DNA from: Candidatus Beckwithbacteria bacterium
GTDB taxonomy: Bacteria > Patescibacteriota > Microgenomatia > UBA1400 > CG1-02-47-37
Assembly (NCBI GenBank): GCA_043803225.1
Contig: JAZDKF010000012.1
Location: forward strand, 54,143-118,142
Direction of reading: 5' to 3'
DNA: 64,000 bases
Shown piece by piece: positions 126 to 11,542 of this stretch. The number at the start of each line of letters is the position of its first letter. The first letter of the stretch is position 1. A program made the translations under genes and the position numbers. Below the pieces are notes generated by a model. It was not told where the DNA came from. It worked only from the letters and a program-made list of their open reading frames with translations, and searched no databases.

Positions 126-1100
126 TTATGCCAGCGACGCCACCAGTTGCCGCCGCGTCTCTGGTGTCAACACCATCATCTCCACATCCTCGGGTTTAAC
201 TTTTCTTGTCCCGCCAAATCTATTAGACACCGCTTGCGAATCCAAACAATGAAATTTTTGTACTGCTTCCGGTAAAATACTTAACTTCCAAAATGGCAGT
301 CCGGTTTTTCTCCGAAACAATGGCACCAAATGACTAATTCCTACAATTACCGCCGTCCGCACCTCCCTTAAAGTCGCTTGCTGATCCAATTTTAAACTGT
401 TTAGAAACTCATCATTATCCAACAAACCAAAAAGGCCTATTAAATCTTGTTTCATTCTTTGCACTTTTTCTAAGGGAGATATTTTACTCAACTCTCTCTG
501 TTGCCTATTTAAGTGAATAAATGCCAGATTGTCTTGTGGTTGAATTTCAACCAACTGTTCTCCTTGAGAGTTTTTAATCCTATATGGCTCTTGTCCAGAA
601 AATTTTATTAAATTTATGCTCGCCGTCCCAAGGTTAATATTTCTTTTCCCCATCTTGACCTCCCTCTTATTATATTCTGGCATCCCATTTCTTGAGAATT
701 CCCAAAAGTGAGACGAAGAAAAAAAAGAAACACGACTAAACTTAAGCGAATCCTCCCATCCAAGAATTATGGACGCTGCCAACACAGACGATCCAATCCA
801 ATAGAGTGAAGCCGGATCATTAGAAAGCTCCCTTGTAAAACTATTATCAAATAAAACACTAATGGTTGTTTTTCCAAGGTTATTTGCTTGTTGCTCGGTA
901 GAACTCGATAAACTCGACGAGGCCAAAAATGGACCCACAGAATTCATTGTATTTAATGCAATGCTCACCAACAACAGTCCATAGGGGTGCCCCATATCTT
1001 TAAGAAAACTAAAAAGATTCGGATCAACTAAGGCCCGTTGAACCTCAAGTGCCGACTTAATAAAATTTCCCGATGATTGAATTATTTCTGGATTAGGCAT
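126..1100 (-). CDS. hypothetical protein, paralog A of a tandem pair (324 aa)
   Basis: Long ORF. Shares N-terminal 'EIIQS...GHPYGLLL' and C-terminal 'ISHLVPLFRRKTGLPFWKL.ILPE...FH..DSQAVS..FGGTRKVKP.DVEMMV.TP' blocks with the adjacent upstream ORF, and a 'F(S/Q)GQEP' loop. No recognisable family. Confidence 0.6.
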   Translation of the reverse strand: MPNPEIIQSSGNFIKSALEVQRALVDPNLFSFLKDMGHPYGLLLVSIALNTMNSVGPFLASSSLSSSTEQQANNLGKTTISVLFDNSFTRELSNDPASLYWIGSSVLAASIILGWEDSLKFSRVSFFSSSHFWEFSRNGMPEYNKREVKMGKRNINLGTASINLIKFSGQEPYRIKNSQGEQLVEIQPQDNLAFIHLNRQQRELSKISPLEKVQRMKQDLIGLFGLLDNDEFLNSLKLDQQATLREVRTAVIVGISHLVPLFRRKTGLPFWKLSILPEAVQKFHCLDSQAVSNRFGGTRKVKPEDVEMMVLTPETRRQLVASLA

Positions 1101-2331
1101 AGTTGGAAATTAGTTGTTGCCTCATTGTTGGCGTTATTACCATCATCTCCACATCCCCGGGCTTAACCTTCCTTGTCCCGCCAAAAGCTTTAGAAACAGC
1201 CTGAGAATCATGCTGATGGAATCGTTGCATCAATTCCGGCAATATGTCTAACTTCCAAGTTGGCAAGCTGGTTTTTCGGCCGAATAAACGCACTAAATGG
1301 CTGATACCGATAAAGATTGCTTGCTTTGCTTTCGCCAGCACTTCTTGTTGTTGCAGAGGTACCTCTCCCATTATTGGCTGATCAATAGCAGAAAAAAGGT
1401 CAATAAGGTCGTTAGTCATAATTGAAACTTTTTCCAGTGGCGATAACTGTCTAAGCTGACTAGCTTGGTGGCTTAAATGAATATGGCCAATCGGCTCGCC
1501 CGGATATATCTGTGCCAGCTCTTCTCCGCCAGGAAGTTTAATCGTGAATGGTTCCTGTCCCTGAAAAGTGGCAAATTTAACTGCGGCTGTCCCCAATCCC
1601 ACTCCATTCTTACCAACAACCAACTCTCTAACCCTCTCGGTTATTTCTTTTTCTCCCACTGCTCTTTTCGACAAAACCGGCACCAAAAACACCTGTTGAG
1701 TAAAAAGTTGTTCCAAGTTTGATTTGCGAGCCAAGTCTACATTGCTTTTTGCGCTTGACAAAACAAACGCTTTCGAAGCAACAGTTAAACCTGAACCCTT
1801 ACTAAAGTCTGTCATTATATTATCTACATCTGAACTTCTTTGGAAAGAGTATCCACTCATTCCCGAACTTTTTTCAAACGAATTGTGGAATTCATCTATT
1901 TCTTCATGCCTTACTTCGGGGACAAAACTCAACAAAGAAGGAAAAAAAGAATTTGCTAAAGACGAATTTAATAATGTTATGCTCCAAAAGGGAACCATTG
2001 CATCATCAGATACTCCTCCTGCCAAACTTGACGCAACAATAGATTTAGATGGAGAAAGAAGGGCCATAGAAACGCCCACCAGACCCTTGCTACCATCCTG
2101 TTTATACGCCGCCTTTGTTTCCACCTTTCTCTGGGGAAACTTGCTTTCGAAAAAGCCGTGAGAGAATTTGACCGAAGAAGAGTCGTTTGACTGACTCAAT
2201 AATAATCCATAAGGGTGTCCTGATTCAATAAGTTTTTGCAAGAGCTCGCTTCTCATTCCTGCATCAATCAACTCTTTTGCCTGGTGGACAACTTGTGGGG
2301 CAGACTGGATGATTTCGTGAAACCCAGCCAT
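1093..2331 (-). CDS. hypothetical protein, paralog B of a tandem pair (412 aa)
   Basis: Long ORF with an 8-nt start/stop overlap with paralog A. Same conserved N- and C-terminal blocks. The 3' ends are also similar at DNA level: 'accatcatctccacatcc(c/t)cgggtttaac(c/t)tt(c/t)cttgtcccgccaaa' occurs in both. Confidence 0.6.
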   Translation of the reverse strand: MAGFHEIIQSAPQVVHQAKELIDAGMRSELLQKLIESGHPYGLLLSQSNDSSSVKFSHGFFESKFPQRKVETKAAYKQDGSKGLVGVSMALLSPSKSIVASSLAGGVSDDAMVPFWSITLLNSSLANSFFPSLLSFVPEVRHEEIDEFHNSFEKSSGMSGYSFQRSSDVDNIMTDFSKGSGLTVASKAFVLSSAKSNVDLARKSNLEQLFTQQVFLVPVLSKRAVGEKEITERVRELVVGKNGVGLGTAAVKFATFQGQEPFTIKLPGGEELAQIYPGEPIGHIHLSHQASQLRQLSPLEKVSIMTNDLIDLFSAIDQPIMGEVPLQQQEVLAKAKQAIFIGISHLVRLFGRKTSLPTWKLDILPELMQRFHQHDSQAVSKAFGGTRKVKPGDVEMMVITPTMRQQLISNYA

Positions 2332-2394
2332 ATTTAAACTTAAAACAATTATAGGCCACAGGTCAAGTCTTTACTATTTATGCCCGCTGCCTAA

Positions 2395-3144
2395 TTATTT
2401 CCCCTGTCCGGCTTTCAACCCTACATAAAAATCCACCAGCGCCTGCGCAAATTGTTGTAGGCCTTCTGGAGAGGTTATAGAAATTGTATTGAACTTTCTA
2501 ATCTCTTTTCTACCACCATGGCGCCCCCACGTTAGTGGATTTATGCTTTTTTCAAAAGCTGGGGCTTTGGCACACTGTTGTTGGGTCAGTTGTAATAAAC
2601 CAGAATCATCAAAAACTACCCCCAACACATCACGCACCATCCTCGGACCCACATTGGCAATTTCCCTTTCTTCATTAAATTTCATGATTGTGGAAAACCC
2701 CCTCCCCGACACCCACCTCTCTACCCTCTCTATCTTTGTGTGACTTTTCCCGGTGGCTTCAAGTTGCACCCTTGCCTTATAGGTCAAAGCGTAGGCAATT
2801 TTACCATTTTTGGGCCCATAAGATCTCACTTGCCTCATTGGGGCAACTTTGTCTCTTAAAACTTCTAAATATTGTTTAATTGGAAACTGTGAAGCTAGTT
2901 GAAAAACTTCTTCATTTTTTTTCTTGTCTTTCCACCATTTAGTTTCTTCCACCGATTCTTTAATTCCCTTTGCAATTCCTTCAACTACCTGCCTCGGGGT
3001 TGCTCGCTTAATTCCTTCCCAAAATTCTGTTCTTTCTTTTTGTCGTCTTGATTTCTCTGCCATTATTTCATCTTGCTTGATTTGACGCCTAAAAGAGTCT
3101 CCTTCTTCCAATTGTTTCCGAAATTCTTCTACGTTTGACATCAA
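2395..3144 (-). CDS. hypothetical protein (249 aa), charged/coiled N-terminus
   Basis: Long ORF directly downstream of dnaN on the same strand. No recognisable motifs. Confidence 0.5.
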   Translation of the reverse strand: MMSNVEEFRKQLEEGDSFRRQIKQDEIMAEKSRRQKERTEFWEGIKRATPRQVVEGIAKGIKESVEETKWWKDKKKNEEVFQLASQFPIKQYLEVLRDKVAPMRQVRSYGPKNGKIAYALTYKARVQLEATGKSHTKIERVERWVSGRGFSTIMKFNEEREIANVGPRMVRDVLGVVFDDSGLLQLTQQQCAKAPAFEKSINPLTWGRHGGRKEIRKFNTISITSPEGLQQFAQALVDFYVGLKAGQGK

Positions 3145-3173
3145 GCCAAATTATACACTATAGGGTCAAAAAC

Positions 3174-4301
3174 CTACTCCTGCACGCGAACCGGCATGAT
3201 AATCTGAATTAAGCTCGCATCGCCCTTGGGTTTAAACACCCCCGGCGACAGCGGCCCGGAAATTTCCATCACTATCTGCTCGCTTTGCACCACATTCAGC
3301 ATTTCCAGCAAATACCGGCTGTTAAAGGCAATCTCTGCTTCCTCGCCGGTTTTCTTGCCGGAAACTTCAACTTCGTTTTCCCCTACTTGCGGCGCATTAG
3401 CCGAAATCACTAAACCTTTCTCGTTAATTTTAAACCTGACAATATTAGCGCTGTCTTTGGCAAACACTGCCGCTGCCCTGACTGCTTGTAATAGTTCTTC
3501 TGTTTCCAGCTCCACTGTGGTCGTGTGGCTTGTCGGAATTATCTTATCAAAATCCGGAAACTCTCCCTCTAAAAGTCTCGTTACCACTTCCACTTCTCCA
3601 TAAGCCATAATTAGTTGCCTCTCTTCGTCCGTGGCCGCCAAAGTAATTTCTTTTCCCTCGGCTTCTGAGGCATTTAAAGCCCTGACTAATTCCATTAACG
3701 CCTTGGCTGGAACCACCATCTCCTTGGCCTTCTTTACCCCTTTTAAACTGACTGTCTTCACCCCCAGCCGGTAACCGTCTGTCGCCGCCAATCTTAAAAT
3801 CTTTTCTTTCATTTCCAGTTTTACTCCGGTAAAAATCGGCCTGGATTCGTCCGTTGCCGCCGCCATCGCTATCTGGTTGATGCTTTCCTCAATCATTTCT
3901 TTGTCCAGTTGAATGGTTTCTTTGGCTGTTTTCCCGTCTCTAAACGAAGGCACTGCCGGAAACTCTTCTGCTCCGATTCCGTTTAATTTTGACTTAAACT
4001 TGCCGCAGCTGATCTTCAAACCCTCTCCCTCTTTTTCCAACACCACTGTTCCCGCCGGCAGCGATGCCACCGCCTCGCTTAAAATTCTCGCTGGTATGGT
4101 AATCTTCCCCTCGCCTTCTACCTTGCCGCCCAACCATAAATTCATGCCTGTTTCTAAGTTTGTCGCTGATAATTTTAACTTGCCGTTGTCTGTAGCCAAA
4201 AGAATATTAGCCAGCACCGGCAACTGGGTCTTATTTGCCACTACCCGGCTGACTAAATTAATTCCTTTGATTAAATTCTCTTGCAGTAAAGAAATTTTCA
4301 T
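3174..4301 (-). CDS. dnaN: DNA polymerase III beta sliding clamp
   Basis: 375 aa, three-domain clamp-like sequence ('MKISLLQENLIKGINLVSRVV...LPVLANILL'). Immediately downstream of dnaA. Confidence 0.9.
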   Translation of the reverse strand: MKISLLQENLIKGINLVSRVVANKTQLPVLANILLATDNGKLKLSATNLETGMNLWLGGKVEGEGKITIPARILSEAVASLPAGTVVLEKEGEGLKISCGKFKSKLNGIGAEEFPAVPSFRDGKTAKETIQLDKEMIEESINQIAMAAATDESRPIFTGVKLEMKEKILRLAATDGYRLGVKTVSLKGVKKAKEMVVPAKALMELVRALNASEAEGKEITLAATDEERQLIMAYGEVEVVTRLLEGEFPDFDKIIPTSHTTTVELETEELLQAVRAAAVFAKDSANIVRFKINEKGLVISANAPQVGENEVEVSGKKTGEEAEIAFNSRYLLEMLNVVQSEQIVMEISGPLSPGVFKPKGDASLIQIIMPVRVQE

Positions 4302-4489
4302 TTATCCCCCTTTTGTTTGTTAACTAACGGTTTAATTAGTAGTAGTTTTAGTAGGCGTTGTTGATAAGTGCATTATACAAGAATTTTTGTCTGTTTTCTT
4401 CTCTAAATATTCGCGTGCACAACCCCGAGGCGCTCTGTGGACAGACTTGTTGATAACTTGTGGATAATAACTTAACTTGTGGATAACTT
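4302..4489. promoter_or_regulatory. oriC segment (dnaA-dnaN intergenic): DnaA-box cluster plus AT-rich stretch
   Basis: Perfect TTATCCACA (as TGTGGATAA) at 4459-4467 and 4478-4486. One-mismatch boxes TGTTGATAA at 4448-4456 and ~4357-4365. A degenerate box CTGTCCACA (as TGTGGACAG) at ~4434-4442. AT-rich 'ttaattagtagtagttttag' at ~4331-4350 as a possible unwinding element. Confidence 0.7.
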
Positions 4490-5905
4490 CTATTTTTTCC
4501 CACTTTGATCCTCCAGTTGTCCACCGCCTTGGTAAATTATCTGCCTGATTCTGGTCATATCTAGTCTTAATTGTTCTGATTCTGCCAGCAATCTGGAAAT
4601 CTTATCCTCGCCGTGCATAATTGTCGTGTGGTCTCTGCCCCCCAGTACCTCCCCCGCCCCATCCAGGGAAAGCTGGAGCTCTCTTCGCAGTAAATACATT
4701 GCTATTTGTCTGGCGTTAACCAGCGATTTAATCCTCCGCACCCCCTTTAGCTCTTGGGGTTTAAGTTGGAAATAGTCGGCGACGCAATTTAAAATCTGTT
4801 TGGGTGTTGGCTTCTTGCCTCCGCTTCGCACCTCGCCATTAATTTTATTTAAAAGCGCCATCACCAACTCCTCGGTTAATGGTTCTTTTCTGGTCTCCTG
4901 CTCGGCCTTAAGCCGCATTAAAACCCCTTCAAGCTTTCTGGTTGATTCCACATTGGCGGCAATTGCCTGAGCCACCCTCATCGGTAAATCCACTCCCTTT
5001 TGCTGGGCTTTAATCAGCAGAATTGCTGTTCGCAGTTCAAATCCCGGCTTTTGTATATCCACTGTCATTCCGCCTTCAAACCTTGATTTTAATCGGTCTT
5101 CCAAGCCCTTAATTTCTGCTGGCAGTCTGTCTGAGGTTAACACAATTTGGCCGCCTTCTTTGTGGACAGCGTTGAAAGTATGGAAAAACTCTTCCTGAAC
5201 CGCTTCCTTGCCGGCAATAAACTGGACATCATCCAAAAGCAGCGCCCGCGCCCGCCGGTACTTTTGCCTAAACTGGGGTGTGGTTTTATTCCTGATTGCT
5301 TCAATTATTTCATTGGTAAACTCCTCGCCGGTACAGTAAACCAGCGCCCGGTCCGGATTTTTCTTTAAAATTTCATGCCCGACCGCCTGCATTAAATGAG
5401 TTTTTCCCACCCCCACCCCGCCGTAAATGAAAATTAAATGATAAACTTCGCCTGGCTTTTTTGCCGCGGTTTTTGCCGCCGCGTGCGCCACCTCATTGCT
5501 GGTTGAAACCGCAAAGTTGTCAAACGTCATTCCCGGAGTCAAACCCACTCGGCTCATTACCCGCTCATAAGCTTCGTCGGCAATCTTGGCGGTGTCAACC
5601 GAAAATAAATCATCTCTCGCCCCTTCTTTTTTTCTTTCTTCTTTGGCCTCAATCTGCAGCTTGATCTCGCACTTGTTTTTTAAATGCTTTTCCCCTAAAG
5701 TTTGAATTTGGCCTAAATATCTTTCAGCCACCTGGTTTTTATGGAATACTGACGGACAGCTTAAGCCCAAAACATAGCCTTGATTGTTTTTATCTAAACT
5801 AACGCTTTTTATCGGACTGATCCAAGTAGCAAAGTTTCCCGGCGACACTGACAATTCCATTTCTGCTAAAATTGACGACCAAAGAAAATTTCTGTCCATT
5901 CTCAA
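4490..5905 (-). CDS. dnaA: chromosomal replication initiator DnaA
   Basis: 471 aa. AAA+ Walker A 'GGVGVGKTHL', DnaA box-binding C-terminal domain, divergent from rpmH. Confidence 0.95.
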   Translation of the reverse strand: MRMDRNFLWSSILAEMELSVSPGNFATWISPIKSVSLDKNNQGYVLGLSCPSVFHKNQVAERYLGQIQTLGEKHLKNKCEIKLQIEAKEERKKEGARDDLFSVDTAKIADEAYERVMSRVGLTPGMTFDNFAVSTSNEVAHAAAKTAAKKPGEVYHLIFIYGGVGVGKTHLMQAVGHEILKKNPDRALVYCTGEEFTNEIIEAIRNKTTPQFRQKYRRARALLLDDVQFIAGKEAVQEEFFHTFNAVHKEGGQIVLTSDRLPAEIKGLEDRLKSRFEGGMTVDIQKPGFELRTAILLIKAQQKGVDLPMRVAQAIAANVESTRKLEGVLMRLKAEQETRKEPLTEELVMALLNKINGEVRSGGKKPTPKQILNCVADYFQLKPQELKGVRRIKSLVNARQIAMYLLRRELQLSLDGAGEVLGGRDHTTIMHGEDKISRLLAESEQLRLDMTRIRQIIYQGGGQLEDQSGKK

Positions 5906-5963
5906 TTAATATATAAGTTATCCACACTTTGTCAACAATCAAAAATTGTGCTATATTAAATTT
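5906..5963. promoter_or_regulatory. dnaA/rpmH divergent promoter region with DnaA box
   Basis: Perfect TTATCCACA at 5918-5926. 'tgctatattaaa' -10-like element just upstream of the rpmH ATG. Confidence 0.5.
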
Positions 5964-6104: not shown

Positions 6105-6401
6105 ATGCGCGGTTCTCAAATCCCTGAAATTCTTAAGTTAGGTAAAACCTTTTCTTCACCCCTATTCAACCTTAAATTTCTGTCTCAACCCAAAGGAATT
6201 GAAGTTGGTTTTATCGTTTCTCTTAAAACTGCCCCCCTGGCCGTTGACCGCAACCGGCTCAAGCGCCGCCTCCGCCACGCCTTTGCCCCGTTTGTTTCTC
6301 AGCTTCCTCCCGGCCGATATTTAATTCTGGCTAAGCCGGCTTTAAACTCCGCCAGTTACCAACAGCTCCTCCATGAAATCTCTGATCTTAAAATTAATTA
6401 A
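6105..6401 (+). CDS. rnpA: RNase P protein component
   Basis: 98 aa, 'NRLKRRLR' RnpA motif, rpmH-rnpA synteny. Confidence 0.85.
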   Translation: MRGSQIPEILKLGKTFSSPLFNLKFLSQPKGIEVGFIVSLKTAPLAVDRNRLKRRLRHAFAPFVSQLPPGRYLILAKPALNSASYQQLLHEISDLKIN

Positions 6402-6576
6402 GCTTTATCAAAGCCAGCCCCAAAGGTTTCCGGCTTGCCGCTTTTCCCCCACCTGTTCTGCCTATTCTTACCAAGCCATCGACAAGTATGGTATATTAAA
6501 AGGTGGCCTCTTGAGTCTCAAGAGGATTTTTAAATGCCATCCCTTCCACCCAGGCGGCGTTAATAATTTAAATTAA
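6373..6576 (+). CDS. yidD: membrane protein insertion efficiency factor YidD
   Basis: 67 aa, 'CRFSPTCSAYS' hallmark, between rnpA and yidC. Confidence 0.85.
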   Translation: MKSLILKLIKLYQSQPQRFPACRFSPTCSAYSYQAIDKYGILKGGLLSLKRIFKCHPFHPGGVNNLN

Positions 6577-6577
6577 T

Positions 6578-7366
6578 ATGTGGAACACAATCTTTTTTCA
6601 GCCTCTTTTAAATGGTTTGATCTTTGCCTATAACCTCCTGGGGCACAATTTGGGTTGGGCCATCATTGGCCTGACTGTTTTTATTCGCTTAGCTTTAACT
6701 CCCCTTACCACGCCCTCGCTTAAATCCAGCCAAAAAATGAAAGAACTTCAGCCTGAGTTAAATAAACTTAAAGAACAATATGGTGCCGACAAACAAACCT
6801 TTGCTAAAAAACAGCTTGAACTTTTTAAAAGCCGCGGGGTTAATCCGGCCGCCGGCTGTCTGCCCCAAATAATCCAACTGGTCGTCTTAATTGCCCTTTA
6901 CCAGGCCTTTAACTTAGTCTTAAAAGCTGACGGCAACTTGGTTGCTAACCTTAATCAGCTTCTTTATCCCGCCTTGCAGCTTCCTCCTGATTTTATCCTC
7001 AACACTAAATTTCTCTACTTAAATCTGGCCCAGCCGGATTTATTTATCATTCCCGGCATTAAGCTTGGCGGCTTTACCTTAAATAAACTTCCGGGCATCT
7101 TTTTAATCTTAGCTGCCGCTGTTCAATTCTTTTCCAGCAAAATGATGATGCCTGCGGCTAAAGCTGGCCAAAAACAAGCCGACAAAACCAAAGCCAAGAC
7201 CGATGATTTTGCCTCCAGCATGCAAACCCAGATGCTCTATCTTTTCCCCTTAATGACACTTTTTATCGGCTTTAACTTCCCCTCGGGTTTGGTGTTATAT
7301 TGGTTTACCTTTTCTCTCATTATGCTTATTCAACAATTGCTTTTAAACTATGGTAAAAAAAATTAA
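6578..7366 (+). CDS. yidC: membrane protein insertase YidC/Oxa1 (short form)
   Basis: 262 aa multi-TM protein, 'GCLPQIIQ' YidC motif, synteny. Confidence 0.85.
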   Translation: MWNTIFFQPLLNGLIFAYNLLGHNLGWAIIGLTVFIRLALTPLTTPSLKSSQKMKELQPELNKLKEQYGADKQTFAKKQLELFKSRGVNPAAGCLPQIIQLVVLIALYQAFNLVLKADGNLVANLNQLLYPALQLPPDFILNTKFLYLNLAQPDLFIIPGIKLGGFTLNKLPGIFLILAAAVQFFSSKMMMPAAKAGQKQADKTKAKTDDFASSMQTQMLYLFPLMTLFIGFNFPSGLVLYWFTFSLIMLIQQLLLNYGKKN

Positions 7367-7811
7367 GTCTTTAACCGAAGATTTTTTTAAGCAAATTGGC
7401 ATCAAACCAGAATCAATCACGGTTAAAGAATCTGAGGAAAAAACTTTTAAAATCGATCTTAAATTTTCTGCTGCTGACGCCGGTATTTTAATTGGCTATC
7501 ACGGCGACACCATCAGTGCTCTTCAGCTGATCTTAAACTTACTGGTTTATCATCAGCAGGGCGAGTGGTTAAAACTGATCGTTAACATTGGCGACTATCG
7601 TCAAAAGCGGGCCGAAGCCTTGGAAAAAATGGCCGAGGATGCCGCCCAAAGAGTTAAGTTCTCCGGCCAGCCGGTTGCCTTATTTAACCTGAATCCCTAC
7701 GAACGCCGCCTGATTCATGAATATCTTTCTACCAATCCCAGCGTGACCACTGAATCTGAAGGCGAAGCCAAAAACCGCCACTTGATTATTAAGCTTGCCC
7801 CGGTTAAATGA
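7350..7811 (+). CDS. jag: Jag/KhpB RNA-binding protein (KH + R3H)
   Basis: 153 aa, R3H-like 'LNPYERRLIHEYL', follows yidC as in most bacteria. Confidence 0.75.
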   Translation: MVKKIKSLTEDFFKQIGIKPESITVKESEEKTFKIDLKFSAADAGILIGYHGDTISALQLILNLLVYHQQGEWLKLIVNIGDYRQKRAEALEKMAEDAAQRVKFSGQPVALFNLNPYERRLIHEYLSTNPSVTTESEGEAKNRHLIIKLAPVK

Positions 7812-8224
7812 ATGACGCAGTTTTGAATATTTATACCGATGGCGGCTCCCGCGGCAATCCTGGTCCGGCCGCTATTGGCGTGGTCGTTAAAAACAGTTTA
7901 GGTAAAACTCTGGCCGCTTTTGGCAAGACTATTGGTTCAACCACTAACAATCAGGCAGAATATCAGGCCTTAATTGCTGCTCTTAATTGGTTAAAAAATC
8001 ACCCCGCGGTACAACAAGTCAATTTTTTTCTTGACTCTGTCCTGGTGGTTAATCAGCTTAATGGTCTCTGGAAGATTAAAAACGTCAATCTTCGCCGGCA
8101 ACTGATCACCATTAGGGAACTGGAAGCAGCCATTCCTGCTAAACTTTTTTACCAAGCCATTCCCCGAGAGCAAAACTTGCTCGCCGATCTTCAAGTTAAC
8201 TTGGCTTTAGACAAACTTCTTTAA
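7808..8224 (+). CDS. rnhA: ribonuclease H (RNase HI-like)
   Basis: 138 aa. 'YTDGGSRGNPGPAAIG' with DEDD residues (D..E 'AEYQAL'..D 'LDSVLV'..D 'ADLQ'). Confidence 0.75.
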   Translation: MNDAVLNIYTDGGSRGNPGPAAIGVVVKNSLGKTLAAFGKTIGSTTNNQAEYQALIAALNWLKNHPAVQQVNFFLDSVLVVNQLNGLWKIKNVNLRRQLITIRELEAAIPAKLFYQAIPREQNLLADLQVNLALDKLL

Positions 8225-8446
8225 GCTCTTTTTCTTTCACTATCGGACTTAAGCATAATCTAGTTTTACGCCTGTTAATTATTCATGTTAAAAAGTACTA
8301 ACGAAATATAATAAGTTTACTCAAGAAGATTTATTCATCGATTAGTCTGTTAACTCCTTAAATAGAAAATGTTAATACTTATTAAATAATATTCTAGGCC
8401 TTTTTTATTCCAGTAATAATTCCCGCTATTTTCCGCAAGCCCCAGC

Positions 8447-11400
8447 TTGCCGTTGAGACAAATATCCGCTAACATGAATACAATGCCCATCAAAGTTAAA
8501 TCAAAATCTAAAGTTAAAACCCATTCTCAGATTTCCCGCCAGCTGCCCTCGGCCTTGGTCGCCGGAGCCGCCGGTTTTATTGGCTCCCATCTTTGTGAGA
8601 CCCTTCTCTCTCAAAACTGCCAAGTCTATGCTATTGATAACTGGACCACGGCTAAGAAAAAAAACCTTGAGGCATTAATGGATAACGATCACTTTATTTT
8701 TATCGAACACAACCTGGAAAAATCCTTTGATGCCCCTGTTCCTAAAGTTGACTATATTTTTCACCTAGCCGGAGTCGAAGCTTATGTTAATGGTTTAGAT
8801 GTTAGTCTGGAAACCCTTTTAGTCAACTCACTTGGTACCAAAGAACTGTTGGAAATTGCTAAAGATCAGGGGGCAAAATTTCTGCTGGCCTCAACTGCTG
8901 ATATTTATTCCGGCCATCTCGCTTCAATCCAAAAAGACGAAACCTACTCGCATTATGAAGCCAAACGTTTTTCTGAAGCCATCACTTTTGAATATCTGGA
9001 TCGCTATCACCTTAATTCTCGGGTTGTCAGGCTCGGACTGGTTTACGGCCCGAGAATGGACTTGAGTTCAGGCAACGACATGGCTCAGTTGTTGCAGGCC
9101 GCCGCCAACAATCAACCATTAAAAATTTACGGCCAAGGCTTAACCACTCTTTACCCCACCCATATTAATGATGTTGTCTATGGCTTAACCAAAGCCATGT
9201 TTTCTCAAAGTTCCTCCGGTCACATTTATACCCTTATCGATCCGGAAAAAATTACCCTTTTAAACCTGGCTTATAAATTAAAGCAGCTTTTACCGGAAAA
9301 AAACTTAAAAGTCGAATTCGTCCCCGACTCTGATTCTGAAACCAATCTGGCTCTTGAATCAACCGCTTTAAGCTCTCAAACTGAACTGGGTTGGTCGCCA
9401 AAAGTTACCTTAGACCAAGGAATTTTATCCACCCTTAATTGGTTGAAAAACGGCAAAGTGCCAACCAAAACTAAACCAGAACCAGAAGCAACTGTTCCCG
9501 AACCAATTTATACTCCGGAAGAATTGGGGATTCAGCCTGCCAAAGCTCCGGAAATCTCGCTTCCGGTTGCTTCCCAACCCAAACTCAAACTTCTCAAATT
9601 TAAACTTAATCTGCCTAAATTTCCTAAATTCTCTTTGCCCAAGCCCAAGCTTTCTTTAAGACCAAGAAAACCCCAGCTGACCAAAAAAACAAAATTAATC
9701 CTTTTGAGCGCGGGCTTGTTATTTTTATATCTGCTTGCTCCTATAGTTTTACTCGTTTTTTCTTCTCTTGCCGGTGTTAAGCAGTTAAAAAGCCTTAGTC
9801 GTCAAATTGACTTTTCTCAAGTTGACCAACTCACTAAAACCACTGCCAAGGCTCAAAAAAACTTTACCTTAAGCCGTGAGTTACTGCGCCGCTCCCAATT
9901 TATATTATCTGTCTTTGGTTTAAAATCATTTAGTCAAAACCTTGACCAGTTATTATTTATTGCCAACAAGCTCAGCCAGGGCGCCGGTTATTTATTTTCC
10001 GCCGGCCAGTCGGGAACTGTCCTATCGCAAATTGTCTTTCACAATCAAGAGGGGAATCTGTCGCAGGCCTTAAAAGAAACTCGCCTTAGTCTGGACCAAG
10101 CCTACACCAACTTGTCTTTTGTTGATTCTGAGCTTCAGTCCGGCCGCGAACGCCAGTTGGACTTAACCGTCTCTCTGACCAAACAGCTGCAAAACTTAAC
10201 TGACAATCTCCCCCAAATCAGGCACAAAATTAATCAGGCGCGGACTCTTTTGCCCCTGATTCCCGGGTTTATTGCCCAGGATACTAAAAAAACCTATCTG
10301 GTTTTATTTCAAAATTCCGCCGAACTGCGCCCCACCGGCGGATTTATTGGCTCTTACGGCCTGCTGACCTTTGAAAAAGGCAAGCTTCTGGACTTTAACG
10401 TTCAGGATATCTATGAAGCCGACGGTCAGCTTAAAGGCTTTGTTGAACCCCCAAAGCCGATCACCCAGTTTTTTGGGAAAAACACCTGGTACTTTCGCGA
10501 TTCCAACTGGGATCCTGACTTTACTATCTCTGCCGCCCGCGCCGAATGGTTTTTGGGTAAAACCACCAATCGCAATGTTGATGGCGTTATTGCCATTAAT
10601 CTTCCGGCGGTTAAAGAATTATTGGCCGCCACCGGTCCGATTACTTTATCTGACTACAATGAAGAGGTGAGTAGTGACAATATTTTTGAACGCGCCGAGT
10701 ATCACTCAGAAATCGATTTTTTTCCCGGTTCTACCCAGAAAAAAGACTTTCTCGGCGCTCTGGCCAGGGAAATGTTTGACCGGCTGCAAAAATCATCAGC
10801 CTCAGATCTATTGAAACTGGCTCAAGCCCTGGAAACCTCGCTCAGCCAAAAACAAATTCTTCTTTACCTTCATGACACCGACAGTCAAAGACTGCTTTTA
10901 GAACAAAACTGGGCCGGCGCTCTTTACGCTCCACGCTTAGCCGCTGCCGACAACCGGCCGGTCACCAGCGACTATTCTTATCTGGTTGAAGCCAATTTAG
11001 GAATTAATAAAGCCAACTACTTTTTAAAACGGGAAATAGAACAGCAGTTAACTCTGCTTAAAAATCGGGAAATTTTATCCGTTACCACTATAAACTATCA
11101 GAACCAGAGCCCGGCCGACGCTTGGCCGGGTGGGGTTTACCGCTCCTATCTTCGCCACTATATCCCTTCAAACTCCATCCCTATCTCAGTCAAAGTTGGC
11201 GACACCAAGCTTGACCTTAAATCAGTTGACCAGACCATTATTAACGACAAGCTAATCTTGGGTTTTCCCATAACTGTTCCGGTCAAAAACTCGCTTTCAG
11301 TGGAAATTACTTACCGATTAAACCAGGCATTAAGCCTCACCGACCGTCAGGGCCGTTTAGCCGTGGTTATTCCCAAACAGCCTGGAACCATTGCCGATCT

Positions 11401-11542
11401 TTTAAAAGTAATTGTTAACTACCCCAGTTACTTATCAGTTGTCGCCGTATCTTCTCAGGGAATTGTTTCCCCTCAAGTCGTTACCCTTCAAACCGACTTA
11501 AGCCAGGACCGTCTTTTTACCATTGATTTTGTTGAACGCTGA
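8447..11542 (+). CDS. fusion protein: N-terminal NAD-dependent epimerase/dehydratase (extended SDR) - Pro/Lys-rich linker - TM helix - C-terminal DUF4012-like domain
   Basis: 1031 aa. Rossmann 'VAGAAGFIGSHLCETL' and 'LASTADIYSG'. Linker 'KPEPEATVPEP...LPKFPKFSLPKPKLSL'. TM 'LILLSAGLLFLYLLAPIVLLVF'. C-terminal block with 'ELRPTGGFIGSYG' typical of DUF4012. Confidence 0.7.
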   Translation: MPLRQISANMNTMPIKVKSKSKVKTHSQISRQLPSALVAGAAGFIGSHLCETLLSQNCQVYAIDNWTTAKKKNLEALMDNDHFIFIEHNLEKSFDAPVPKVDYIFHLAGVEAYVNGLDVSLETLLVNSLGTKELLEIAKDQGAKFLLASTADIYSGHLASIQKDETYSHYEAKRFSEAITFEYLDRYHLNSRVVRLGLVYGPRMDLSSGNDMAQLLQAAANNQPLKIYGQGLTTLYPTHINDVVYGLTKAMFSQSSSGHIYTLIDPEKITLLNLAYKLKQLLPEKNLKVEFVPDSDSETNLALESTALSSQTELGWSPKVTLDQGILSTLNWLKNGKVPTKTKPEPEATVPEPIYTPEELGIQPAKAPEISLPVASQPKLKLLKFKLNLPKFPKFSLPKPKLSLRPRKPQLTKKTKLILLSAGLLFLYLLAPIVLLVFSSLAGVKQLKSLSRQIDFSQVDQLTKTTAKAQKNFTLSRELLRRSQFILSVFGLKSFSQNLDQLLFIANKLSQGAGYLFSAGQSGTVLSQIVFHNQEGNLSQALKETRLSLDQAYTNLSFVDSELQSGRERQLDLTVSLTKQLQNLTDNLPQIRHKINQARTLLPLIPGFIAQDTKKTYLVLFQNSAELRPTGGFIGSYGLLTFEKGKLLDFNVQDIYEADGQLKGFVEPPKPITQFFGKNTWYFRDSNWDPDFTISAARAEWFLGKTTNRNVDGVIAINLPAVKELLAATGPITLSDYNEEVSSDNIFERAEYHSEIDFFPGSTQKKDFLGALAREMFDRLQKSSASDLLKLAQALETSLSQKQILLYLHDTDSQRLLLEQNWAGALYAPRLAAADNRPVTSDYSYLVEANLGINKANYFLKREIEQQLTLLKNREILSVTTINYQNQSPADAWPGGVYRSYLRHYIPSNSIPISVKVGDTKLDLKSVDQTIINDKLILGFPITVPVKNSLSVEITYRLNQALSLTDRQGRLAVVIPKQPGTIADLLKVIVNYPSYLSVVAVSSQGIVSPQVVTLQTDLSQDRLFTIDFVER

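Follow-up and report, generated by a model that had tools for sequence, protein, structure and literature searches.

Two overlapping genes downstream of dnaN in a 64,000-nucleotide stretch of Candidatus Beckwithbacteria (contig JAZDKF010000012.1 of GCA_043803225.1, positions 54,143–118,142, forward strand; hereafter the window) encode members of a small, conserved protein family, seen only in Patescibacteria, that is previously undescribed at the sequence level and remotely resembles a known fold class, the GNAT acyltransferases. The upstream gene is of a type that we call A (412 residues), the downstream one of type B (324 residues). Our favored interpretation, which we hold tentatively, is that A and B form a co-translated pair of divergent GNAT-like enzymes that would serve as an accessory module in neighborhoods of type IV secretion system (T4SS), nuclease and restriction-modification (R-M) genes. 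Homologous loci in other genomes are labeled L001–L020, and 11 distinct loci, including that of the window, were compared in all. Residue numbers are those of the 412-residue protein, and conservation and motif counts refer to an alignment (A3) of 50 diverse family members.

A preliminary description of the window, made from its letters, had listed three minus-strand open reading frames (ORFs) directly downstream of dnaN, of 249, 412 and 324 codons, without assignable motif. All three are real genes, and scans of their products and of distant relatives against Pfam, NCBIfam, PHROGs and PADLOC indeed returned only noise. The 249- and 412-residue proteins are identical to "hypothetical proteins" of a Candidatus Beckwithbacteria metagenome-assembled genome (tags in Table 1). 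Moreover, the suspected lineage-specific conservation of the A and B proteins is borne out: a word-indexed search of 5.8 billion proteins found 36 homologs, none of them with a Pfam domain, and an exhaustive profile search of 1.84 billion cluster representatives found 62 family clusters, all source names returned being "hypothetical protein" entries of Patescibacteria. Repeating the search with a profile of 50 sequences brought in no further or named members. Since the named sources include Beckwithbacteria and Falkowbacteria, the family spans distant classes of Patescibacteria; a pattern scan of 185,579 GTDB species genomes recovered one locus, in a Falkowbacteria genome. His285 and Trp359 are invariant in all 50 aligned members, and Pro40, Gly342, Ser344, His345, Leu346, Pro365, Ser380, Gly384, Gly385 and Asp393 show a conservation of 90% or more.

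Analysis of the family members, which range from 220 to 435 residues, reveals a common architecture. In short relatives of 220–240 residues the GHP block is joined straight to the C-terminal domain, and in longer members a variable insert of 90–190 residues, containing 14–28% Ser, rich in Leu and Phe and poor in charge, lies between them. The Ser-rich insertion previously noted in the longer window protein does exist but is no peculiarity of it, as both copies carry such a segment (19% Ser over 180 residues and 23% over 93). A transmembrane nature of the insert was rejected, as it shows no convincing membrane-spanning segment and its maximum 19-residue Kyte–Doolittle hydropathy is mostly below 1.6. 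In the AlphaFold2 (AF2) model of the 412-residue protein, built with a 37-sequence alignment, the predicted local distance difference test (pLDDT) score is above 90 for residues 230–412 and 82–94 for residues 30–50, and falls below 50 for residues 52–179, the insert predicted to be disordered. The predicted fold appears to resemble that of GNAT acyltransferases and not that of release factors. GNAT proteins are built as β1-α1-α2-β2-β3-β4-α3-β5-α4-β6-β7 with a V-shaped splay of β4 and β5; their motif A, Q/R-x-x-G-x-G/A in the β4-α3 loop, binds the pyrophosphate of acetyl-CoA, and their active sites lie at the ends of β4 and β5. In the model, His285 would be located at the end of the β4-equivalent strand and Ser344-His345 at the end of the β5-equivalent strand. 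We therefore read the family domain as a very divergent GNAT-like domain predicted to be devoid of the canonical acetyl-CoA loop. The conservation of His285 and Trp359, together with the near-invariance of Gly342, Ser344-His345, Gly384-Gly385 and Asp393, suggests an enzyme.

The two window proteins are paralogs, as originally proposed. BLASTP aligns their C-terminal 179 residues with 52% identity (E 2e-61) and their N-terminal 40 residues, which hold the common GHPYGLLL block, with 45% identity; the sequence motifs quoted in support of the paralogy (EIIQS, GHPYGLLL, FxGQEPx and FGGTRKVKPxDVEMMV) were all found. On the other hand, the claim that the duplication is recent is contradicted by the divergence of the two genes. 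Over the conserved C-terminal domain the nucleotide identity is 56%, third codon positions agree in 38% of cases, and the proportion of synonymous differences (pS, Nei–Gojobori) is 0.76, i.e. saturated. The nucleotide similarity of the last 60 codons (64–68%) is explained by the amino-acid identity of 67–68% there. In a neighbor-joining tree of the C-terminal domains, the 412-residue protein falls into an A clade with P0003–P0007 and the 324-residue protein into a B clade with P0029, P0033, P0035, P0039 and P0040, so that A and B form separate clades across lineages. The best matches of the 412-residue protein are the A types of other loci, those of the full-length 324-residue protein are B types elsewhere (45% identity to a 311-residue protein of L012, E 2e-95), and the latter keeps all invariant columns of alignment A1. 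Because B and A genes adjoin in several other lineages, the duplication is judged from these sequences to be ancient and older than the split of the lineages that carry tandem pairs.

The tandem arrangement itself recurs in at least five other lineages of Patescibacteria: neighboring B and A genes overlap by 4 or 8 nucleotides in L006, L012/13, L017/18 (in the order B-A-A) and L019/20, and L009 also holds an overlapping pair of family genes in tandem. The order A then B in the window is opposite to that in the other loci. Whether homologs are always tandem and origin-proximal had been put forward as a check; 7–8 of the 11 loci are tandem and 2 of the 11 are origin-proximal. In L001 (7922–10004), two of three tandem copies and a gene of the NTase/DUF4037 type are frameshifted, all of them intact in the near-identical L017 (3692–5772); the frameshifts could be due to pseudogenization or to assembly error.

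The slot downstream of dnaA-dnaN is usually occupied by recF/gyrB. Here, dnaN is followed by the 249-codon gene, A and B, with a virB4 gene converging on B. The latter was identified from the product of the incomplete plus-strand ORF at the window edge, which is 74% identical over 31 residues (E 2e-14) to the C-terminus of a 1280-residue protein of L010, a VirB4-like conjugal ATPase of the CD1110 family (NF045971, 390 bits at a cutoff of 325). The sister clade L010/L011 (56% identity) has rnpA-yidD-yidC-jag-RNaseH beside dnaA-dnaN, after which come a single A-type gene and a convergent VirB4-like ATPase gene; behind the latter lie a TrsD-like and then a weakly PrgI-like gene. In both genomes the 3' ends of the ATPase and family genes overlap by about 74 nucleotides (window 126–199, L010 6158–6231), the Pro/Ala/Ser-rich tail of the ATPase being encoded antisense to the C-terminal block in which the family is most conserved. 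Such an overlap may permit interference, by antisense or at the level of transcription; alternatively, the tail could be a mere by-product of it. The L010 ATPase gene (6158–10000, minus) furthermore contains an intein with a LAGLIDADG homing endonuclease (Pfam Intein_splicing and LAGLIDADG_3; NCBIfam intein N- and C-terminal models). In L005 and L009, homologous membrane proteins of about 465 residues are encoded after the family genes, the one of L005 giving weak TrbC/VirB2 and MMCAP2_0566 conjugal-transfer matches.

According to a recent survey (Quinonero-Coronel et al. 2025, PMC12102498), the T4SS cluster of Patescibacteria is of the monoderm MPF-FATA type (VirB4, TrsD, PrgI/VirB3, VirB6 and VirB2-like pilins), is situated close to dnaN, dnaA and rnpA in Paceibacteria and, commonly adjoining them, in Microgenomatia, and is proposed to import DNA or other macromolecules. 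The system, origin-near in many classes, is reported to be indispensable for growth as an epibiont; the family is without mention in the parts of the survey that were searched and read. As this cluster is known beside dnaA/dnaN in Microgenomatia, the slot is filled differently here, and the dnaN-adjacent position is better explained by the neighboring T4SS cluster than by a replication function. Indeed, that position is limited to the window and its closest clade L010/L011, the nine other distinct loci lying elsewhere, so that the origin-proximal function suggested in the preliminary description is not upheld.

Examination of the other loci reveals a second recurrent type of neighborhood. Among the 11 distinct loci, T4SS parts adjoin the family in four, SNase genes in five and R-M genes in four (raw counts, without background expectation), so that each of these adjacencies recurs in independent lineages. 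SNase genes, whose products carry N-terminal membrane anchors, stand no more than a few genes from the family in six lineages (L001/L017, L006, L012, L014 and L019) and directly beside it in five of the six, and R-M genes adjoin the family in L001/L017, L006, L014 and L019. A cassette shared by L001/L017, L012/13 and L019/20 consists of genes for an AbrB/MazE-like protein (55–60 residues), a coiled-coil protein of about 136 residues with weak Gam/Gp157-like matches, the membrane-anchored SNase (157–166 residues), B and A, with a second A gene at its end in L017. Next to the cassette lie a convergent DUF2268 gene, a gene for a 91-residue membrane protein or both, the L012/13 contig ending before such a flank, and Dcm, Vsr or restriction genes follow where the sequence continues; some loci also hold RadC, DUF6119, ThsB_TIR and a LexA-like gene. 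The 91-residue protein is highly conserved (MxxIILGGLxGGxLRG...LVKLKFKEKFEKLVKI) and its gene lies convergently downstream of the SNase-B-A cassette, always on the minus strand (L017 7602–7877, L019 4084–4359, L001 11833–12108), with the DUF2268 gene between the two in L001 and L017. Other arrangements place a single A gene after an SNase gene, Vsr and Dcm being close by (L014/15), SNase and Type III R-M methylase genes after a B-A pair (L006), and a gene for a 687-residue protein with a Peptidase_C70 domain after a single copy (L002–L004). The adjacency to SNase genes makes a functional link between the family and the SNase conceivable.

The features of the window locus are collected in Table 1. 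The plus-strand genes rnpA, yidD, yidC, jag and the RNase H gene diverge from dnaA, and, given the cluster of DnaA boxes in the dnaA-dnaN spacer, the locus plausibly lies next to oriC. The overlap of the A stop codon with the B start codon suggests an arrangement for translational coupling. Family conservation supports this overlapping start as the right one for B; the public version of the gene (P0042, 270 residues) uses an internal GTG start and thereby loses 54 conserved N-terminal residues including GHPYGLLL. Rfam and tRNA scans of the region detected no RNA gene.

Table 1. Coordinates of genes, protein parts and sequence elements at the dnaN-proximal locus of the window (ORF, open reading frame)
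Feature	Position (nt)	Strand	Residues	Basis or remark
3' end (last 65 codons) of VirB4-like T4SS ATPase gene	2–199	plus		convergent; exits window on left
B-type gene, 324 aa	126–1100	minus		ORF, paralogy, clade placement, family conservation
8-nt overlap of A stop and B start, ATGCCTAA	1093–1100	minus		sequence
A-type gene, 412 aa, public tag V1810_00920	1093–2331	minus		ORF
412-aa protein, part 3: GNAT-like α/β domain (predicted)	1096–1644		~230–412	
412-aa protein, part 2: Ser/Val/Leu/Phe-rich insert, predicted disordered	~1795–2178		52–179	
412-aa protein, part 1: N-terminal helices with GHPYGLLL	~2188–2301		~11–48	
Promoter-like element TTGACCTGTGGCCTATAAT	2348–2366	minus		ends 16 nt before 412-aa start codon
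249-aa gene, V1810_00925	2395–3144	minus		ORF; 248 aa from ATG at 3141 more likely
Promoter-like element TTGACCCTATAGTGTATAAT	3150–3169	minus		ends 8 nt before ATG of 249-aa gene
dnaN	3174–4301	minus		ORF; orthologous to Pfam-supported DnaN of L010
DnaA-box cluster, dnaA-dnaN spacer	4359–4486			2 perfect and 2 one-mismatch boxes in 130 bp
dnaA	4490–5905	minus		ORF; orthologous to Pfam-supported DnaA of L010

The gene between dnaN and A, described before as an orphan, nearly is one: among the 5.8 billion proteins its product has, besides itself, a single homolog (P0038, 66% identity). Since the nonsynonymous divergence between the two genes (dN 0.21) is lower than the synonymous one (dS 0.59; dN/dS about 0.35), the ORF is a coding gene under purifying selection. 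On the 1-kb contig of the homolog (L016), the gene directly upstream ends in an A-type family C-terminus, so that both known occurrences are linked to the family, in differing order. The protein has a charged helical N-terminus; its AF2 model, based on a two-sequence alignment, is uninformative (pLDDT 44). Homology to the product of the 239-codon NTase/DUF4037 gene at the equivalent position of L017 was ruled out (BLASTP E 2.2).

Both this gene and the A gene are preceded by promoter-like elements. A 24-nucleotide block, TTTTTGACCCTATAGTGTATAATT, is identical upstream of the two 249-codon genes (window and L016 283–306), and the element before the A gene is conserved before its L010 ortholog as CTTGACAGGTGGCCTATAAT (L010 ~5003–5022), the two sharing CTTGAC(C/A)(T/G)GTGGCCTATAAT. 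The pattern TTGAC-N6-10-TATAAT occurs only twice in the 64 kb, against 0.18 occurrences expected, both times at these elements. Their spacer measures 7–8 nucleotides, that of sigma-70 promoters 17, and a simple sigma-70 scan with spacers of 16–18 nucleotides missed the elements upstream of both genes. Lying 8–16 nucleotides before the start codons, the elements would imply leaderless transcripts or very short leaders; the predicted promoter 8 nucleotides before the ATG of the 249-codon gene has a near-leaderless geometry. The SNase-cassette loci carry TGTGATATACT-N8-11-ATG in place of the TTGAC/TATAAT element.

Two further observations concern the surroundings. The plus-strand GC skew is negative (about -0.1 to -0.3) across nearly all of the 64 kb, on both sides of dnaA and regardless of gene orientation; it approaches zero at 26–28 kb and 52–56 kb, and its sign changes neither at the DnaA-box cluster nor upstream of dnaA, where a box lies at 5918. 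Either replication does not drive the skew in the window or the switch lies outside it. An ORF of 1031 codons (8447–11542, plus) appears, by eye, to encode a protein that begins like NAD-dependent epimerases/dehydratases (GxxGxxG) and continues through a linker rich in Pro and Lys and a membrane segment into a large C-terminal domain.

Taken as a pair of enzymes, A and B would each form one α/β domain of GNAT topology, split into about 50 N-terminal residues (the helices and GHPYGLLL) and about 185 C-terminal ones, the variable Ser/Leu/Phe-rich disordered insert lying between the halves and being absent from the shortest relatives. With a promoter-like element of their own and an overlap of 8 nucleotides, they would probably be co-translated and work jointly; an A/B hetero-oligomer is the most plausible form, as GNAT enzymes commonly oligomerize. 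The most likely activity would be acyl or aminoacyl transfer, with a donor presumably bound otherwise than canonical acetyl-CoA since motif A is missing. The module would not belong to the replication machinery; it would sit at the edge of the T4SS cluster in the window and its sister clade, or behind a membrane-anchored SNase near R-M genes, and these neighborhoods point to a role in genetic conflict or in the handling of macromolecules on their way across the envelope.

Several observations weigh against this interpretation. A regular-expression search of alignment A3 found no alignment position with motif A in more than one of the 50 sequences. GNAT profiles matched neither the window proteins (E <= 1) nor ten distant relatives (E <= 0.1), alignments A1 and A2 gave no match when run as sequence profiles against PDB, and Foldseek found nothing significant in PDB and BFVD. 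The placement of His285 and Ser344 in a GNAT cleft comes from mapping of secondary structure, not from superposition. The single-copy loci L010, L014 and L002 imply that a heteromer cannot be obligatory, and the neighborhoods of the family are heterogeneous. Finally, virB4 adjoins the family only in the window and L010/L011, and 62 family clusters compare with the 2,474 virB4 genes given in the published survey (PMC12102498), so that the family is not a core T4SS part.

An unlikely alternative is that the domain is a non-catalytic, GNAT-like scaffold or regulator, a binding module such as an intracellular chaperone or inhibitor of the exported SNase or an assembly or adaptor factor of the T4SS, with the insert as interaction region. 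Such a role would agree with the absence of the cofactor motif, with the long, variable, disordered insert, with the membrane-anchored SNase that, in five lineages, is encoded immediately before or after the family genes and with VirB4 adjoining in the window and L010. However, an invariant His together with near-invariant Ser-His, Gly-Gly and Asp across members of only about 20% identity is more typical of a catalytic site, and there is no constant partner, SNase being missing from the vicinity in the window and L010, and T4SS genes from the SNase loci. Quite improbable in our view is that the proteins are GNAT-type toxins or effectors of a conflict system, similar to TacT, AtaT or KacT, which would poison translation, e.g. 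by acylating aminoacyl-tRNA; variants of this proposal make them part of a defense or abortive-infection module with the adjacent nuclease, or effectors delivered by the T4SS against the host bacterium. TacT, AtaT, KacT and ItaT are toxins of about 160–180 residues with an acetyl-CoA site, encoded next to a small ribbon-helix-helix (RHH) antitoxin gene of the DUF1778 type. The family differs from them in that no DUF1778/RHH gene stands beside family genes in the 11 loci, the proteins are longer, motif A is absent and PADLOC gives no match.

A function linked to replication, in which the recF/gyrB slot would be held for action at the origin, for instance by a lineage-specific replication or repair accessory protein, is very improbable. 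The genes do lie directly downstream of dnaA-dnaN, 1–4 kb from the DnaA-box cluster, and at the same position in the sister clade, but the remaining distinct loci are away from dnaA/dnaN, almost all Patescibacteria lack the family, which was recovered at a single locus among the GTDB representative genomes, and no DNA-binding or ATPase features were found. Moreover, the affinity of T4SS clusters for the origin, as described in the survey (PMC12102498), accounts for the position. Practically negligible is the possibility that the proteins are of the eRF1/Pelota release-factor type, a speculation prompted by the F(S/Q)GQEP loop of the window proteins, or that the ORFs are spurious or recently duplicated. 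The Gln of this loop is present in only 12 of the 50 members and the predicted fold is GNAT-like; the hallmarks of eRF1 and Pelota are a GGQ loop, conserved universally, and the domain folds of eRF1, a combination from which the family departs.

Patescibacteria have many uncharacterized protein families besides this one, and if A and B were merely another divergent GNAT pair, their value would be modest and mainly one of cataloging. What raises interest is the conserved coupling of A and B, the split domain with its disordered insert and the site at the dnaN/virB4 junction. A conserved family under purifying selection at this junction, and elsewhere beside exported nucleases and R-M genes, represents a testable candidate accessory factor. 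Patescibacteria depend on host bacteria. It is a bold conjecture, and one that we consider doubtful, that A and B are the signature of a previously undescribed family of enzymes whose GNAT-like catalytic domain is split and whose donor is bound in a new way, and which work with the repurposed T4SS and surface SNases, for example as effectors that the T4SS delivers or by modifying or marking DNA, protein or tRNA imported from the host; if so, the family would supply a functional component that has been missing from the picture of the epibiotic lifestyle, and would be more than a generic hypothetical protein. The analysis also corrects the picture in three respects, concerning the age of the duplication, the origin-proximal site, which reflects the T4SS cluster, and the public annotation of the 324-residue protein, which lacks the conserved N-terminus.

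Comparison with known systems places the family between two types of gene cluster. It is tied to the T4SS cluster of Patescibacteria by its location in the window and in L010/L011, where family genes are bordered by dnaN on one side and by a convergent gene for a VirB4-like ATPase on the other, TrsD- and PrgI-like genes following the latter in L010/L011; this matches the origin-proximal T4SS site reported for Microgenomatia in the survey (PMC12102498). It differs from this cluster in that the family fits no T4SS component profile and that more than half of its loci have no T4SS gene within reach. Other known cassettes combine a nuclease with partners, namely an exported thermonuclease (SNase/NucI-like) with accessory genes on mobile elements. 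We know of no SNase partner family of this fold or sequence, and the window locus departs from such cassettes in being without an SNase. The likeness is found in the other lineages, five of which carry a membrane-anchored SNase homolog directly beside the family genes, preceded in most of the five by the genes for the AbrB/MazE-like and the ~136-residue coiled-coil protein.

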